Shown here: piece by piece, positions 16,786 through 23,861 of the stretch
How positions within the stretch are numbered: the stretch's first letter is position 1
Layout: each line of letters begins with the position of its first letter
Notes under the pieces: generated by a model
Told to the model about the DNA's origin: nothing
The model's input: only the letters and a program-made list of their open reading frames with translations
Databases searched by the model: none
Assembly (NCBI GenBank): GCA_016208845.1
Contig: JACQXH010000078.1
Coordinates: 14,605 to 62,487 of the forward strand
Source of the DNA: Nitrospirota bacterium
Lineage (GTDB): Bacteria; Nitrospirota; Thermodesulfovibrionia; UBA6902; BMS3Bbin08
Direction of reading: 5' to 3'
Length of the DNA: 47,883 nt
Translations under genes and position numbers: made by a program

Positions 16786-18213
16786 TTAATTCCCCAATTT
16801 CTTTCTCAGCAATTCATTCACTATCTTTGGATTGGCCTTGCCTTTTGTCGCCTTCATTATCTGCCCTGCAAAGAATCCAAGGAGCTTTTCTTCGCCTGCC
16901 CTGAACCTCTCCACTTCTTTAGGACTCTTGCTTAATATTTCATCGACCACTTTTTCGATCTCCGACTCATCGCTTACCTGAATAAGTCCTTTTTCCTTAA
17001 CAATGGATTCAGCGTGTTTGCCCGTCTTATACATCTCTTCCAAAACCGTCTTGCCAATCCTGCCACTGATCGTGCCGTTCTCAATAAGCTTAAGCAATCC
17101 ATCAAGATGTTCTGGGCCTAGGGGACATTCATCGAAGTCTTTGTTTTCCTCATTGAGTATTCTCCTGAGATCGCCTATCATCAAGTTACTTACTGACTTG
17201 GATGACGATCCAAGATTCACTGTTTTTTTGAATAAGTCTGAGCTGGACCTGTTAATAGACAGCAGATTTGCATCATGTTCTGGCAACCCGTGTTGAATCA
17301 AACTCTGTTTTCTTTCGTCAGGAAGTTCCTCAATCCCCTCCTTTATTCTTTCAATCCATGCATTATCTACTTCCACAGGCACAAGATCCGGCTCAGGGAA
17401 ATACCGGTAATCATGAGCCTCTTCTTTTGAACGCATGGATTCCGTGATACCTTTGTTTGAATCCCAGAGGCGCGTCTCCTGAACTATCCTTCCGCCTTCG
17501 TTGAGAATTTTGATCTGCCGCTTTATCTCATACTCAAGCGCCTTTTCAACAAAACGGAAAGAATTCATGTTCTTGATCTCGGTCTTTGTGCCTAATTCCT
17601 TTTGTCCAACAGGCCGGACAGATACATTGGCATCGCATCTTAGCGAACCCTGTTCCATATTCCCGTCGCATACGCCGATATCACGGACAATCGCTCTTAA
17701 TTTTTTTACAAACTCCGCAGCCTCCTGCGGACTGCGTATGTCAGGTTCTGATACAATCTCCATCAGGGGCGTGCCGGCCCTGTTCAAATCAACGAAACTG
17801 TGACTGCCCGCGCCTTCGTGTATGTTTTTCCCCGCGTCTTCTTCAAGGTGGATCCTTGTAAGCCCGATCTTTTTTGTAATTCCGTCAACCGTGATCTCCA
17901 CAAATCCATGTTCGCATATGGGTAGTTCATACTGGCTTATCTGGTAACCCTTCGGAAGGTCGGGATAGAAGTAGTTCTTTCTTGCAAACCTGCTGTAAGG
18001 GGCGATCCTGCAATTTACTGCAAGCCCTGTCTTGATCACATACTCAATCGCCTTTTTGTTCATCACAGGCAAAACACCCGGCATCCCGATGCAGACCTGA
18101 CACGTCTGCGTGTTCGGCTCCGCGCCGAATTTTGTCGAGCACCCGCAGAACATCTTTGAGTCGGTTGAAAGCTGTGCGTGTATCTCAAGCCCTATGACTG
18201 ATTCGTATTGCAT
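16786..18213 (-). CDS. gatB: Asp/Glu-tRNA(Asn/Gln) amidotransferase subunit B
   Basis: MQYESVIGLEIHAQL, CQVCIGMPGVLPV and LHLEEDAGK, with full-length collinearity (475 aa). Confidence 0.95.
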   Translation of the reverse strand: MQYESVIGLEIHAQLSTDSKMFCGCSTKFGAEPNTQTCQVCIGMPGVLPVMNKKAIEYVIKTGLAVNCRIAPYSRFARKNYFYPDLPKGYQISQYELPICEHGFVEITVDGITKKIGLTRIHLEEDAGKNIHEGAGSHSFVDLNRAGTPLMEIVSEPDIRSPQEAAEFVKKLRAIVRDIGVCDGNMEQGSLRCDANVSVRPVGQKELGTKTEIKNMNSFRFVEKALEYEIKRQIKILNEGGRIVQETRLWDSNKGITESMRSKEEAHDYRYFPEPDLVPVEVDNAWIERIKEGIEELPDERKQSLIQHGLPEHDANLLSINRSSSDLFKKTVNLGSSSKSVSNLMIGDLRRILNEENKDFDECPLGPEHLDGLLKLIENGTISGRIGKTVLEEMYKTGKHAESIVKEKGLIQVSDESEIEKVVDEILSKSPKEVERFRAGEEKLLGFFAGQIMKATKGKANPKIVNELLRKKLGN

Positions 18214-18942
18214 TTACGCGTTCCAGTAATCCTTTGACACTTTATAAATCTTTGCCAAATATTTCTCACAGGCTGCTACAATTTTCTCAGCTTCTTTTAA
18301 GTCCTCTTTAGCCGTATCTTCATCAATGGACGTCTGAAAATCATAATCGCCTATCTGCCGCTCTTTAAACAATTTTTTCAAAGTCTTGCTGAACGAGGAA
18401 GAAAATTTTCGTGTCTTGATAAATTCTCTGTTAAATGCTCCTATGGTCTGGCCGTGTGATGAATAGTGCAGTCCCTTTGAAAGCAACACAGCAGAGATGG
18501 CATGAAAGACCGCATAGTAAGAGCGGGATACGGTGTCGTCATAATGATCGTTTTCCAAATTGGTTTTAGCTGTTTTCAGTTTTTCCAGCGCCTTGCCAAG
18601 CATTTGCTTGATAACATCAATATCGCCTGCTTTCATAATTCTATTCCTTCTTTTAGAATGTTTAAACCGCTCATCACATATAATGTCGCCGATTAAGACC
18701 TCATATTTGTTCAGGAAGTCTACGCTTATATTAAGAAGCATATTTTCGTATGCCTTTTTTCTCTTATCAACAACGACCAGAAAATCATAATCAGATCCTT
18801 CATGAAAATCGCCTCTTGCACGCGAGCCGAACAGGATAATGCTTTTGAGGTGATGTTTTAATCTCTGTTTGACACGCCTTGCAAATTCAATGGCTATTTT
18901 GTCTGTTCTTTTTTTCTTCATATATAGTCCCTTGCATGGCAT
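18214..18942 (-). CDS. Fused minimal nucleotidyltransferase (MNT) and HEPN domain protein
   Basis: The N-terminus has LFGSRARGDFHEGSDYDFLVVV (GSx10SDxD). The C-terminus has SRSYYAVFHAISAVLL...FKERQIGDYD, a PF05168-type HEPN. The stop codon directly abuts the gatB ATG. The likely start is ATG 18921. Confidence 0.75.
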   Translation of the reverse strand: MPCKGLYMKKKRTDKIAIEFARRVKQRLKHHLKSIILFGSRARGDFHEGSDYDFLVVVDKRKKAYENMLLNISVDFLNKYEVLIGDIICDERFKHSKRRNRIMKAGDIDVIKQMLGKALEKLKTAKTNLENDHYDDTVSRSYYAVFHAISAVLLSKGLHYSSHGQTIGAFNREFIKTRKFSSSFSKTLKKLFKERQIGDYDFQTSIDEDTAKEDLKEAEKIVAACEKYLAKIYKVSKDYWNA

Positions 18943-18966: not shown

Positions 18967-21255
18967 TTATTTTTCCATCTGTACACACGAAAGATAATCT
19001 TTCAAAAAGCCTTTCTCAAAAAGCAATCCCTTGAATGACTCAAGCCGTTCTCTTGGATAATTCGCCGGATGCGCTGCGGGATTGCGGTATTTGTCTTTTA
19101 TTTGAAAAAGCTCATTTTTGAAATCAAGAAGTTTTTGTTTCCCATAGGTGTTATTCAAAATAAACTGTGAAAATTGCCACAGTAACTTATCTCCGTCTTT
19201 TGCTTTTTTTGTCTTATCTATCAGTGTGCATATTTCTCCAAGTGTTATCTTTGTGTCGCATACGATAAGCCTGACTTTATCCTGAGTTTTGTATTTTATC
19301 TGACAGCCTGTTGATAAGCAGACGTCAATGATCTTCCTTTTGAATTCATTTTCAATCGCCTTTGCGTATTCGATTGCCACAAAGCCGAATTCATCGGACG
19401 GCGAAAACTGATAGGTGGTATCAAGATGCCGGGCAAGCATGAGGAAGGTCCTTGTGGCTTCATCAAGACTTTTCCATAACTGCGTACCTATCGCACCGTG
19501 ATAATAATCCTGAACGGTCTTGTTGTTGATCTGAGATGCGAATGTTTCATTTTTCTTATGAATGTTCTCAATTATCTTCTCGGTATTTTGAGTTATCAAA
19601 TTCTCAATCGAGCCTTGATTTTCCTTCATGACCTCAAAGATCGCCGTCTGCTTGTCATAAATTTCTCTGAGCATATACGTTTGCAGATCATTTTTTGCAC
19701 TTAAACTTTTGAGTGCCTTGATGATGTCGGACTTTTCCTGAATTTTATTTATAAGAACCTGCAACTGATCGCGCGTGAGAACAAATTGGCCCTTTGATTC
19801 GGTAACATGGGATTGAACCGCCGGAAAATCCTCCTTTGCGACGAGCTCGTAAAACTCGTCTATCTTGTGATACGTCCTTGCATTATGCTCATATTCAAGC
19901 TTTGTTTTTGCCGCCTCAATCTCATTCAGAAAGCCCTGATGTATCGGCAGTCCACGCTCTTGAAGGAGTTTAAACTTTGAGAGGAAGTTGATGCTGTCTT
20001 CGTATGAGTTCAGTTTTTTGGTTGTTTCAATAAAATTATACATCTCTATTACGTCTAAAGGTGTTTCATTGTGATAGCTTTTTTCAAACATACAGGCTGC
20101 ATTAAAAAGAGAGGTCTTCAAACAGGTCATAGATTCTTTGTAAGAACCTTTATTAAAGTAGGTGTTGCTTGCTGCAAAAAAACCTTTAGCTGCTCTAAAT
20201 GGATCACCAAGTTCCTCCATATCATATATTGAGGAAATAACTAAATATTCCAGTGGGCAGATTTCTAAATCATCTTTAAAGATTAAAGAGGCATTGAAGG
20301 CTAATTCGTTATTGATTTTATTATTTTCGTGCAGTGTATTGTAGAAGTCTTCAAGGAAAACAGAGTTGATTCTGCTTCCCAGTGGTTTGTACTCTATATC
20401 ATACCCTTCCCAAAATATCGTATCAGCATAGTCAATACCTGCCATGATTTGGTCTAAACTGGTTTTAGGGATAGCATCGAGTATTGCATTGCATACATCA
20501 GAAAAAGGACCTTCTATCTCGTATCTTAGGTGAAGAAGTCCACATAACTCATGAAAGTTTAATTCTTTGTCTTTTAACTTAGAAGACATGTATTGATTGG
20601 CTATTTTGTTTACCCCTTGATTCTTGTCCAATTGTTTAAAAGGATATGCTTTAAAAAAATTATTAATATCTTCATCAGGATATTCTTTTAAAATAGGGCA
20701 ATGATCAAAGACTATTTGTATAGCAATGAGCTCCAAAAGACCGTGTTTTGCGATTATCAATTTGAGGCAAGTTATGAAAAATACTTTAACTTGGGAATAA
20801 TTAATATTACTTGTAGTTGAAGACTCTTTGCTTTCTTCTGCTGGAATTGCAGGTAGTAATAGATGTGCATCATCTAAGAACCTATCATCCCCAAAGCACG
20901 TTGCATTACAGTCCTGTAGCCATTCCTTCCCAAAAAATACCCCAATATTACTTAACTCATATATCTGCTGAGCAAAATATTTATTTATTCTAAGTGGTTC
21001 TCGTTGTTTCCAGGTCCAATGCATCTCTGTCGAACTATTAATAAGGAAGCGGTTTATCTCCTCAACATTCGCTGTTTCAATACAACGGATAATGCCTTTG
21101 GCATAGTCGCTTTTGGGATCGAACTTGCCTTCCCGAATCTTCAGTATCAGCAGCTTTGTCAATGTCTCAAGATCATCAGGACTTGTTTGTAGCTTTTTAC
21201 GGAAAGCCTTCTCTTCGGAAGATTGGTTTGCTTTGAATGGAATTATCTTGCCCAT
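18967..21255 (-). CDS. Orphan 762-aa protein with a C-terminal HEPN-like module (RNxxxH)
   Basis: A long uninterrupted ORF in an AT-rich segment. I recognise no N-terminal family. The last ~170 aa read LDEATRTFLMLA...AIEYAKAIENEFKRKI...KDKYRNPAAHPANY, which is the helix-1 A/E pattern plus the Rx4H of Abi/DUF4145-type HEPN domains. Confidence 0.6.
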   Translation of the reverse strand: MGKIIPFKANQSSEEKAFRKKLQTSPDDLETLTKLLILKIREGKFDPKSDYAKGIIRCIETANVEEINRFLINSSTEMHWTWKQREPLRINKYFAQQIYELSNIGVFFGKEWLQDCNATCFGDDRFLDDAHLLLPAIPAEESKESSTTSNINYSQVKVFFITCLKLIIAKHGLLELIAIQIVFDHCPILKEYPDEDINNFFKAYPFKQLDKNQGVNKIANQYMSSKLKDKELNFHELCGLLHLRYEIEGPFSDVCNAILDAIPKTSLDQIMAGIDYADTIFWEGYDIEYKPLGSRINSVFLEDFYNTLHENNKINNELAFNASLIFKDDLEICPLEYLVISSIYDMEELGDPFRAAKGFFAASNTYFNKGSYKESMTCLKTSLFNAACMFEKSYHNETPLDVIEMYNFIETTKKLNSYEDSINFLSKFKLLQERGLPIHQGFLNEIEAAKTKLEYEHNARTYHKIDEFYELVAKEDFPAVQSHVTESKGQFVLTRDQLQVLINKIQEKSDIIKALKSLSAKNDLQTYMLREIYDKQTAIFEVMKENQGSIENLITQNTEKIIENIHKKNETFASQINNKTVQDYYHGAIGTQLWKSLDEATRTFLMLARHLDTTYQFSPSDEFGFVAIEYAKAIENEFKRKIIDVCLSTGCQIKYKTQDKVRLIVCDTKITLGEICTLIDKTKKAKDGDKLLWQFSQFILNNTYGKQKLLDFKNELFQIKDKYRNPAAHPANYPRERLESFKGLLFEKGFLKDYLSCVQMEK

Positions 21256-21290: not shown

Positions 21291-21746
21291 TTAAAACAAC
21301 TTCTTCTGCGGGTTTGCTTTTTGTATCTTATCCATGATTTCTTTAACAAACTTGTTAGCGCTTTCGAGAGATTTTGCAACCTCAGTTCTGGAAATAGGTC
21401 TTTCAGGTTCATATATGAAATCGTGCCTTTTAATCCTCATCCGGTTAAATCTTTCCGTTAGATTTCTGAAATCCCCGCCGAGTATCTCTTCGCAGAAGTC
21501 TACAACCGTCTTATGCTGGTTTCTGCCTTTCGGGCGATAACCCGAAAAAAACATTAAAGCCCTGCCTGCCCTGAGCATTGCATGATATGCGATTGTATAA
21601 GCCCATTCTTCGTCTATATTGATAGTTGCCTTTGAGGTAATTAAATCTTTGCCGGCACGTTTAATGTTGGAGATTATTTGCTTATCATTATAGGATATCT
21701 TTTCTATCAGACCCTGTGTTTCAAGCCTTTTTAAGCTCACGCTCAT
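21291..21746 (-). CDS. HEPN domain protein (putative toxin)
   Basis: AYTIAYHAMLRAGRALM... and RMRIKRHDFIYE (Rx4-6H). It overlaps the upstream MNT gene by 26 nt. Confidence 0.65.
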   Translation of the reverse strand: MSVSLKRLETQGLIEKISYNDKQIISNIKRAGKDLITSKATINIDEEWAYTIAYHAMLRAGRALMFFSGYRPKGRNQHKTVVDFCEEILGGDFRNLTERFNRMRIKRHDFIYEPERPISRTEVAKSLESANKFVKEIMDKIQKANPQKKLF

Positions 21747-22308
21747 CCCCTAACAACATAATTTTCTCATCTTTCAGCACATCCATAATAAACCCATCTT
21801 TTGCTTTTTTCTTAGTCAGGAACTCTTTGTAATCATAAATTATGTGATTTATGGTCCTGCCTGACATTTTCTCAAGACCGTTTATTTCCGAATCAAGCTT
21901 GTCAAAATCAACATCTCCGATGATTATCAGATCAACATCACTGTCTGCCTTTTCCTCTGCTTTTGCAAACGAACCATATATAAAAGCGAACTTAACAGCC
22001 GGAAGATTTTCTATTACAGTCTTAATCTCGCCGATAACCCCGACTGTTTTAAGAATAAGGCCTTTCAGCTCATTAAAAAAAGAACAATTCCTGTTCGTCT
22101 GAAAATACTTAAGGTTGCCATGTCTTGATGATGAAAGAATTCCGGCTTTTTCGAGAGCTGCCAGTTCGCGGCTGAGATTTGTAGAGTCTTCTTTAAGGAT
22201 GGTTGCAAGCTGGCGGACAAAGAAGCTTTCATCGCTGTGCGTGAAAAACCATGACAGCGCCTTTGCCCTGGTCCTTGAGCCAAATATTTTTTCTATTGCC
22301 TGTCCCAT
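21721..22308 (-). CDS. Winged-HTH plus nucleotidyltransferase (MNT) protein (putative antitoxin)
   Basis: The N-terminus is ArsR-like (FVRQLATILKEDSTNLSRELAALEKAGIL). The C-terminus has IYGSFAKAEEKADSDVDLIIIGD. Confidence 0.7.
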   Translation of the reverse strand: MGQAIEKIFGSRTRAKALSWFFTHSDESFFVRQLATILKEDSTNLSRELAALEKAGILSSSRHGNLKYFQTNRNCSFFNELKGLILKTVGVIGEIKTVIENLPAVKFAFIYGSFAKAEEKADSDVDLIIIGDVDFDKLDSEINGLEKMSGRTINHIIYDYKEFLTKKKAKDGFIMDVLKDEKIMLLGDERELKKA

Positions 22309-22463
22309 AGGTTATAGTAAATATTACTGCAATTGCAGTTTATATTACTGCAATCTATAGGTTCTGTCAACGCAGTTCTTTACAACTCCGGCTTTCTCTT
22401 ATGCCACCCGGTATCCTGCTCATAAGCATAAGCAATTTTCAAGATCGTTTCTTCATCAAAATG

Positions 22464-23861
22464 CTACCCGATTATCTGCAGGCCGATGGGTAAATTACCA
22501 GAAGAAAAACCGCAGGGGATGGATATGCCCGGCACTCCTGCGAGGTTGACCGATATCGTGAAAATATCTGCAAGATACATATGAAGCGGGTCATCAGTCT
22601 TTTCTCCAGACCTAAATGCCGGAGTTGGTGATGTCGGCGTGACTATCACGTCTGCTTTTTTAAATGCATTTTCAAAATCCTGTTTTATCAAGGTCCTTAC
22701 CTGCTGCGCCTTTTTATAGTATGCGTCATAGTATCCTGAGGACAATGAATATGTGCCGAGGATTATCCTCCTCTTTATCTCTGCGCCGAACCCTTTTGCC
22801 CTTGTCTTCATGTACATGTCCAGCAGATCATTGCCTTCTGTTCTTGCGCCATATTTTACCCCGTCATATCGTGCAAGATTGGATGAGGCCTCAGAGGTAG
22901 CGATTATATAATATGCGGCCACTGCATAGCCTGTATGCGGGAGCGATATCTCAACAGGAACAGCCCCGAGGGCTTCAAGTTTTCTGATCGCCTGTTTTAC
23001 GGATTCTTCCACCTCTTTGTCTATGCCCTCAATGAAATATTCACTTGGAATTCCTATTCTCATGCCTTTTATATCACGCCCGAGCCCCGAGGTAAAATCA
23101 GGCACTGCTATAGGTGCCGATGTTGAATCATCAGGGTCATGGCCTGAAATAATATTCATCAGCATAGCAGAATCTCTAACGTTTTTTGTAATAGGCCCAA
23201 TCTGGTCAAGAGATGAAGCAAAGGCAACAAGGCCATAACGGGAGACCCTTCCATATGTAGGCTTCAACCCTACAACCCCGCAGAATGATGCGGGCTGGCG
23301 TATCGACCCGCCAGTGTCAGAACCTAAAGCGGCAATGCACATATCCGATGCAACCGCAGCAGCCGACCCTCCGCTTGAGCCGCCCGGCACTGTCTCAAGA
23401 TCCCACGGATTGTGTGTACGGCCGAAAGCGGAATTTTCCGTAGATGAACCCATTGCAAATTCATCGAGATTGGTTTTACCGATCAGGATGAAGCCCTGGT
23501 CTTTTAATTTCTGTGTGACTGTGCTTTCATAGGGCGGAATAAAATTCTCAAGGATCTTTGATGAGCACGTAGTCCTGATACCATCTGTGCACATGTTGTC
23601 CTTCACAGCAAGGGAAATGCCGAGCAGCAATCCCCTGTCGCCATTTTTTATGCGGCCCTCTGCATCTGTTGCGCGGGCTAATGCGTGTTCTCTGGCAATG
23701 GTCACATAGGCCTTTATCTTGGGCTCTACGGAATCTATTCTCTTGAAGAGTGCGTTTGTCAGCTCAACAGGACTGATCTCGCCTTTATCAAGGGCTGTCC
23801 GTGCTTCGTGAATACTTAAAGTATGCAGTTCCAAGTCTCCTCCGGGAAAAATAAAAATCAA
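22464..23861 (-). CDS. gatA: Glu-tRNA(Gln) amidotransferase subunit A, ending at a premature in-frame TAG
   Basis: Amidase signature [12 protein letters not shown] and the [10 protein letters not shown] Ser-cisSer-Lys region. The ORF ends at ...IGLQIIG-TAG, and 27 further in-frame codons (HFDEETILKIAYAYEQDTGWHKRKPEL-TAA, down to 22380) encode the normal GatA tail. The real start is probably TTG near 23834, after GGAGGAG. Confidence 0.9.

Follow-up and report, generated by a model that had tools for sequence, protein, structure and literature searches.

Among the effectors of prokaryotic immunity and toxin systems, RNases of the HEPN superfamily form a main class, which includes Cas13, Csm6, RnlA, HepT, Tha, and HepS. 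In Staphylococcus aureus prophages, Tha-1 and Tha-2 are tail-activated HEPN anti-phage proteins, with an N-terminal part proposed to detect a phage protein and a HEPN dimer that degrades RNA non-specifically (PMC11087260). HepS of Gifsy-1 is a single HEPN protein that both senses and executes: a phage structural protein activates it allosterically, and it cleaves tRNA anticodon loops (PMC13043305). More broadly, HEPN domains occupy restriction and defense neighborhoods, the TPR-fused families LA2681 and C6orf70/DUF4209 carry a conserved Rx4-6H motif in conflict or restriction-modification (R-M) neighborhoods, and the Ymh family, too, is found as a C-terminal module in R-M and defense settings (PMC3710099). 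Here we describe a gene for a 762-aa protein (18967..21255, minus strand) in a 47,883-nt stretch of a Nitrospirota bacterium assembly (contig JACQXH010000078.1, positions 14,605 to 62,487; hereafter the window), in which a fast-evolving alpha-solenoid precedes a conserved HEPN-like C-terminal domain. An earlier sequence-only reading had proposed a sensor domain coupled to an RNase effector, and we infer that this stays the best reading: with modest confidence, we lean toward a stand-alone defense or toxin protein of the abortive-infection type, in which a sensor solenoid would control a HEPN RNase and a phage would be the most plausible trigger.

The open reading frame (ORF), 762 codons plus a stop, is complete and real, and lies third among four accessory genes inserted between gatA and gatB. 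Its strand is minus, which the sequence-only reading had left unstated; the plus-strand reading of the same interval is riddled with stops, and a whole-genome search found the gene as a single copy without internal stops in the source genome. All peptides quoted from it earlier are present in the translation, LDEATRTFLMLARHL at residues 597-611, AIEYAKAIENEFKRKI at 627-642, and DKYRNPAAHPANYP at 720-734. The protein had been called an orphan, and at full length it indeed has no useful match in Pfam (even at E up to 10), NCBIfam, or PADLOC, but about 20 homologues match it over the full length. When 5.8 billion proteins were searched with a word index, 20 relatives were recovered, mostly full length, at 28-60% identity, and an exhaustive hidden Markov model (HMM) search of 1.84 billion cluster representatives recovered 21 clusters at E < 1e-30. 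The sole match in whole-protein family scans, to GLTP at E = 0.069, was judged to be noise.

Full-length relatives with a named source come from metagenome-assembled genomes (MAGs) of Nitrospirae and Nitrospira and from one unclassified archaeon MAG. Of 185,579 species representatives, 2 encode a member of the family, and so do two of the 41 genomes related to the source genome. DNA of the window was found in groundwater metagenomes, and the only sequencing runs containing the gene are groundwater DNA runs. One relative (P0014, 574 aa) is preceded by a 190-aa ORF located 10 nt upstream (locus L027, 945-3252), and the two lengths sum to that of a complete family member; a frameshift or an assembly error has probably divided one gene.

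Conserved motif and predicted fold of the C-terminal domain

The C-terminal domain spans residues 572-762 (18970..19542, minus strand), as delimited by its AlphaFold (AF2) model and by approximately 90 distant proteins that share only this part of the sequence. It contains the catalytic-type motif R724-N-P-A-A-H729 (19069..19086, minus strand), an Rx4H pattern with an asparagine after the arginine. Since an Rx4H arises in 37% of shuffles of the protein, and a second, unconserved copy is found at residue 434, the Rx4H pattern alone is weak evidence; the longer form RNxxxH arises in 2.6% of shuffles. The weight of the motif comes instead from its conservation across homologues, a check that had been named beforehand. 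In an alignment of 16 full-length homologues (29-61% identity), all six positions (R724, N725, P726, A727, A728, and H729) are invariant, as are A627, I628, E629, A633, E635, N636, E637, F638, and K641 in the upstream helix. At greater divergence (22-40% identity), three additional full-length relatives retain the arginine, the asparagine, the alanine pair, and the histidine together with E635, E637, and K641, such that R724, N725, and H729 are invariant across 19 full-length relatives. The segment E635-N-E637-F-K-R-K641 (19333..19353, minus strand) provides the acidic residues and an Ex3K pattern in the long helix 2, with E635, E637, and K641 invariant in the family. Just after the putative catalytic histidine, Y733-P-R735 (19051..19059, minus strand) includes two further residues, Y733 and R735, that are invariant in the 16-sequence alignment; this conservation is specific to the family, as neither is conserved in the distant C-terminal domains.

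Beyond the full-length family, an HMM search connected the last approximately 190 residues to about 90 proteins that share nothing else with it, at E between 1e-13 and 1e-3, and the resulting superfamily comprises about 100 clusters at 50% identity. Aligning 36 of these distant domains, 17-24% identical to the query, leaves no invariant columns but those of R724 and H729, which makes the R/H dyad the most constrained feature of the domain superfamily; W594, E635, E637, and A728 are conserved in ≥90% of the sequences. Members occur as stand-alone proteins of ~190-350 aa, as proteins of ~730 aa with N-terminal TPR arrays, and as fusions to N6 and N4 DNA methylases (one also with a type I specificity domain), to a ResIII helicase, to DUF2357/PD-(D/E)XK, and to receiver domains. 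P0110, P0066, P0099, and P0051 exemplify fusions with an N6 methylase and a type I specificity domain, with N4/N6 methylases, and with DUF2357, and these fusions point to undescribed RNase-armed R-M variants. Across the 5.8-billion-protein collection, the profile search returned no named or Pfam-annotated member over the C-domain region. Three distant relatives matched 'mad2' of the MADS defense system; this lead was dropped because the match falls on their methyltransferase part, outside the shared C-domain.

Modeled alone, the domain is predicted with high confidence (pLDDT, the predicted score in the local distance difference test, of 89.4; predicted template modeling score, pTM, of 0.88). 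In domain numbering, a helix at 28-43 is followed by a long helix at 48-77 that carries the ExE pair and the Ex3K pattern, then by an insert consisting of a beta-hairpin and two or three short helices, and by a helix at 142-152; the motif arginine (R153) ends this last helix, and the histidine (H158) lies in the loop before a helix at 164-176. The predicted structure thus places the motif at the junction of helices 3 and 4 and the Ex3K pattern in helix 2. HEPN domains are characterized by an Rx4-6H motif, a polar residue (N, D, or H) after the arginine, a second acidic residue in helix 2 as Ex3[KR], and a poorly conserved insert between helices 2 and 3 (PMC3710099), and all four features are present in the predicted domain. 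The fold anticipated by the sequence-only reading, a helical bundle, is therefore borne out at the level of the model, with the motif where the published layout has it (PMC3710099).

Comparisons with known HEPN structures and families gave weak similarities that recur. When the domain model was compared with the PDB using Foldseek, the best E was 0.5 and nothing reached ≤0.001; Csm6 occupied ranks 1-2 (5yjc) as well as 3 and 7 (6tug), RnlA (6y2s, 7aex, and 4i8o) ranks 6, 9, and 13 (TMq of 0.39-0.42), and Csm6' (8pe3) and the TM0613 HEPN protein (1o3u) ranks 32 and 49, TMq reaching at most 0.42. Scanning the 36 distant domains singly against Pfam (E up to 10), Hypoth_Ymh (three members) and HEPN_Swt1 (two members) were the only families matched by more than one domain, each weakly, and Cas_Csm6_HEPN, Abi_2, and RnlA DBD were matched once each. 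The PADLOC CARF_HEPN model matched the target's own C-domain at E = 8e-4, in an alignment ending at H729, and a Csx1/Csm6 model matched relative P0072 at E = 7e-5. Using hhalign against Ymh, for which the template was a nine-sequence alignment built from genomes of the phylum, we obtained P = 1.4e-4 and a probability of 53% over 32-34 columns covering the motif and the following helix. All of these recurrent similarities (Csm6, RnlA, Ymh, Swt1, and Abi_2) point to HEPN, and to catalytic families of it. Based on motif conservation and the predicted fold, the C-terminal region is very probably a HEPN-superfamily domain.

It belongs, however, to no named HEPN family, the TPR-fused ones included. 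The sequence-only reading had likened it to Abi-type, Cas13, and DUF4145 HEPN RNases; the HEPN-like character, marked by the invariant RNxxxH, holds up, but the specific affiliations do not. Abi_2 (AbiD/AbiF, PF07751) gave no hit to the protein at E up to 10 and matched one of the 36 distant domains at E = 0.084, and DUF4145 (PF13643) was absent from Pfam scans of the protein, of 55 full-length relatives, and of the 36 domains. Cas13 requires two HEPN domains, each with a conserved Rx4H; judged by this motif count, the target, in which a single Rx4H is conserved, is not Cas13-like. For Hypoth_Ymh (PF09509), no HMM match above 25 bits was found in the source genome, and the similarity is local only. 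HEPN_LA2681 (PF18733) had no six-frame HMM match in the source genome and hhalign P = 0.64, and C6orf70/DUF4209 (PF13910) had no HMM match there and hhalign P = 0.086, restricted to the six-residue motif RNxxAH; both hhalign negatives are weak because the template alignments were shallow (2-4 sequences). HepT (DUF86) with a cognate MntA conserved across loci was likewise considered and set aside, there being no DUF86 match in the protein or the 36 domains. Neither the family nor the wider clade that shares its C-domain appears to have been described, and the annotation libraries searched lack both.

These observations also bear on whether the domain is a nuclease at all. Whether HEPN-like or unrelated, this helical domain could instead bind a nucleotide, another ligand, or a partner, the protein then being a scaffold or regulator: fold and profile searches returned nothing significant, the strongly conserved ExE pair and Trp594 could form a binding site, and catalysis is absent from many HEPN-like domains that are joined to nucleotidyltransferases (PMC3710099). 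Such non-catalytic HEPN domains typically lose the Rx4-6H motif (PMC3710099), however, whereas here its arginine and histidine are the only invariant columns of the superfamily, the asparagine after the arginine and the Ex3K pattern are in place, and the recurring weak matches are all to catalytic families. We therefore regard a non-nuclease role as quite improbable, and the preferred reading of an RNase-type effector domain is retained below.

N-terminal solenoid and long-helix region

The full-length AlphaFold model (pLDDT of 74.8) is all helical except for one hairpin. It opens with a small four-helix module at residues 1-80 (21016..21255, minus strand; helices at 13-24, 29-41, 50-61, and 64-77, with pLDDT 82-90), whose start, MGKIIPFK, is conserved in the family. 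A variable linker at residues 81-150 (20806..21015, minus strand) is the least conserved part of the protein, with block conservation of 0.23-0.42 and pLDDT <50 at 81-109 and 138-151. This is followed by an all-alpha solenoid at residues 151-470 (19846..20805, minus strand), the putative recognition region, as delineated from the AF2 model and Foldseek. The sequence-only reading had found the ~590-aa region upstream of the C-terminal domain unrecognizable, apart from a coiled-coil-like stretch. The model, Foldseek, and profile matches instead reveal an alpha-solenoid with a TPR-like unit, at residues ~350-440 (19936..20208, minus strand). Foldseek matches to the full-length model are dominated by generic TPR solenoids (Ski3, Ctr9, and designed CTPR; E about 2e-3), and positions 365-450 of the family profile repeatedly match multi-repeat proteins at E = 1e-9 to 1e-3. 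All seven such matches that were checked are TPR_12/TPR_10 proteins, including one TIR-NB-ARC-TPR and one TPR-CHAT protein; the TPR HMMs in Pfam gave no match to the target protein itself.

Conservation is unevenly distributed along the chain. The N-terminal 330 residues are the least conserved (0.23-0.58 per 20-residue block), and blocks in the center and the C-terminal domain reach 0.64-0.88. Between solenoid and C-terminal domain, residues 471-571 (19543..19845, minus strand; motifs VLTxDQLxxLIxKIQEK and NTEKIIENIHxKN) have the highest mean column conservation of any region, 0.66. A coiled-coil-like stretch had been noted earlier at residues 480-590, and the single helix predicted at 495-570 is compatible with a coiled coil, but the confidence of the model is low in this part. 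Strong conservation together with a long helix modeled at low confidence would be expected if a coiled coil forms only with a partner chain, and residues 471-571 may form a coiled coil or dimerization stalk.

Genomic setting of the gene and its relatives

The insert separates gatA (22464-23861) from gatB (16786-18213), and its four genes are co-directional with both, all on the minus strand. The first encodes a 195-aa helix-turn-helix (HTH)-nucleotidyltransferase (NTase) protein (21721-22308; PADLOC PDC-M05A, E = 3e-53), and the second a 151-aa PF05168 HEPN protein (21291-21746; PDC-M05B, E = 6e-14). These two genes overlap by 26 nt and represent both components of the PADLOC candidate defense system PDC-M05. 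The target gene comes third, and the fourth encodes a 242-aa fusion of a minimal nucleotidyltransferase (MNT; PF01909) with a PF05168 HEPN domain (18214-18942), identified by family matches, whose stop abuts the gatB start codon at 18213. Its architecture resembles that of FhepTA, a fused MNT-HEPN protein (PMC13000451), the comparison being one of architecture only. Intergenic gaps are 24-35 nt, and the GC content of the insert is 33-40%, compared with 44-48% in the flanks. A promoter-like site (TTGACA-17-TAATAT, 10/12 matches, 22342-22370, minus strand) lies between gatA and the first insert gene, and this sequence suggests that the insert, possibly along with gatB, may have its own promoter. 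No minus-strand terminator-like site was found in the gaps between insert genes. The gatA ORF of the window ends in LQIIG, and GatA of relatives (L035 and L039) extends for ~27 more residues (RHFDEES...KRRPRL); the corresponding part of the window is 22380-22466 (minus strand).

In relatives of the source genome, the same slot is empty or holds other genes. In three of them, gatA and gatB are 100-200 nt apart, and in another a RelBE-like pair fills the gap. Just upstream of gatB, one relative has PIN, ribbon-helix-helix (RHH), and MNT genes, and another has a type I HsdS gene. Because its contents vary among relatives, we interpret the gatA|gatB slot as a cargo hotspot in this order of Nitrospirae. 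The closest relative of the target itself is found at the same gatA|gatB site, beside an MNT (NTase) and HEPN pair. Elsewhere, one relative of the target sits between a DUF433/DUF5615 pair and SIR2_2, near GmrSD, HEPN RiboL-PSP, and Fic genes, and another overlaps a Schlafen AlbA_2/HATPase_c_4 gene by 4 nt, the two being inserted together in the middle of a cobalamin (cob) operon (L006, 8001-11953), where they may constitute a two-gene module in that lineage. Others are located beside type I R-M genes, directly after MazE-PIN, or after an XRE-type HTH (HTH_3) and RadC. Outside the gatA|gatB pair, the genomic location differs in every lineage. No partner gene recurs, for which reason the gene looks self-sufficient. 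Overall, it is a rare, patchy, low-GC accessory gene residing in toxin-antitoxin- or restriction-rich spots.

The nucleotidyltransferase neighbors raise the question of whether the four-gene insert is one module, in which an MNT would AMPylate Tyr733 and silence the RNase, i.e., a type VII-like toxin restrained by adjacent minimal nucleotidyltransferases. The target gene is indeed flanked by the HTH-NTase and HEPN pair (21291-22308) on one side and the NTase-HEPN fusion (18214-18942) on the other, its closest relative at the same site adjoins such a pair, Y733 and R735 are invariant right after H729, and, both in HepT and in MNT-HEPN fusion proteins, a tyrosine next to the HEPN motif is AMPylated by MntA (PMC13000451). 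However, none of the seven other independent contexts has an adjoining MNT gene, and each neighboring NTase is already paired with a PF05168 HEPN domain of its own. In addition, the tyrosine spacing is H-x3-Y in the target versus H-x-Y in HepT, and the target domain is without a DUF86 match. Control by a neighboring MNT thus seems improbable, and a protein that acts alone remains our favored interpretation.

The same locus could be read as that of a HEPN RNase with a role outside defense, such as RNA processing, quality control, or stress-related RNA turnover, with the solenoid binding a cellular partner and the amidotransferase operon perhaps hinting at a link to tRNA. The tight, co-directional packing with gatA and gatB, down to the last stop abutting the gatB start, would fit such a role, as would the terminator-free gaps and the two contexts without defense neighbors, and eukaryotic as well as some bacterial HEPN proteins perform housekeeping RNA work (PMC3710099). 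A housekeeping function is nevertheless difficult to reconcile with a gene found in just 2 of 41 relatives, gatA and gatB being directly adjacent in others, with the low GC content of the insert, with the unrelated toxin-antitoxin and R-M cargo in the same slot of other genomes, and with a gene location that changes in every lineage. We consider it distinctly unlikely, and return to a defense or toxin function.

Proposed function and comparison with known systems

Because a HEPN-type domain is combined with a slot that collects toxin and defense genes in relatives, the target is probably a single-protein immunity factor or toxin RNase. Beyond the observed architecture, conservation pattern, accessory status, and conflict-gene neighborhoods, the following mechanism is proposed by analogy with HEPN biochemistry (PMC3710099) and with the single-protein systems Tha and HepS. 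The C-terminal domain is predicted to be a metal-independent endoribonuclease, active as a dimer in which a composite R/H cleft would be built from two Rx4H motifs, and the long helices may mediate or gate this dimerization. The variable solenoid would bind the trigger, most plausibly a phage protein, and binding would lead to cleavage of RNA (tRNA, rRNA, or mRNA) and to growth arrest of the infected cell, as in Tha and HepS.

Several observations weigh against this proposal. None of the comparisons with a known HEPN structure or family is significant by itself, and none passes a curated cut-off. Foldseek returned no match to the C-domain in BFVD, and sequence searches of the PDB returned chance matches only (HIF-3alpha and CD9), whether started from the single protein, from the C-domain profile of the family, or from that of the superfamily. 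The conserved ExE pair stands out more than it does in typical HEPN families, which could reflect a different chemistry. With regard to the setting, two of about nine contexts are without anything defense-related, no relatives were detected in viral contigs, in phage records (tblastn), or in plasmid records, and the host is an uncultured groundwater bacterium.

A more far-reaching scenario, which we consider unlikely but worth stating, is that the C-domain defines a new HEPN clade (W...FL.TAE, D[YF]SP..EY.KA.E.EL, TLG, YRNxAAH, and a beta-hairpin insert) that has become joined, time and again, to methylases, helicases, PD-(D/E)XK nucleases, and TPR arrays. Under this scenario, the target would be an NTPase-free, single-chain pattern-recognition RNase whose solenoid reads a phage protein directly and whose coiled-coil stalk relays the signal to HEPN dimerization, and AMPylation of Tyr733 by a neighboring MNT might add a layer of control.

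The main value of this gene lies in the annotation gap that it exposes and in a compact, testable sensor-RNase design. Defense annotation pipelines miss the C-domain because it is absent from Pfam, NCBIfam, and PADLOC. At about 760 residues, the family would represent an NTPase-free combination of sensor and effector in which direct recognition of a trigger can be tested, and should the RNase prediction fail, the invariant R/H/ExE constellation would point to a different and unknown chemistry. The gatA|gatB junction also offers a simple anchor for finding accessory conflict genes in an uncultured order of groundwater Nitrospirae.

Among families defined by their HEPN domain, the nearest named one is Hypoth_Ymh (PF09509/TIGR02391), which has the same RNPxAH core (e.g., AVRNPIAHEP). 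The target domain is ~70 residues longer, however, and the Ymh alignment lacks its beta-hairpin/helix insert, its ExE pair, and its conserved Trp. LA2681 and C6orf70/DUF4209 resemble the target in architecture, i.e., TPR or solenoid repeats combined with a HEPN domain. HepT/MntA and FhepTA (PMC13000451) are comparable in that they are HEPN RNase toxins, that MNT genes adjoin the target in two loci, and that a tyrosine lies near the catalytic histidine. Unlike HepT, the target has no PF05168 or HepT/DUF86 match, is five times as large, and is without MNT neighbors in most contexts.

HepS offers a parallel to the mechanism proposed for the target, the likeness being one of described behavior; published as a tetramer-forming protein with a single HEPN domain, it differs from the target, which has ~570 residues more. 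Tha shares with the target a single polypeptide with an N-terminal part lacking any known-domain match and a C-terminal HEPN domain with RNxxxH (RNSIMH in Tha-1), and both have Csm6 5yjc among their top structural neighbors. They differ in scale and setting: Tha-1 is a prophage-encoded protein of 301 aa with a poorly modeled N-terminus, whereas the target is a chromosomally encoded protein of 762 aa with a large, mostly confidently modeled alpha-solenoid and a long helix. Overall, the kind of system is a familiar one, a single-gene conflict system that pairs a HEPN effector with a repeat-type sensor.

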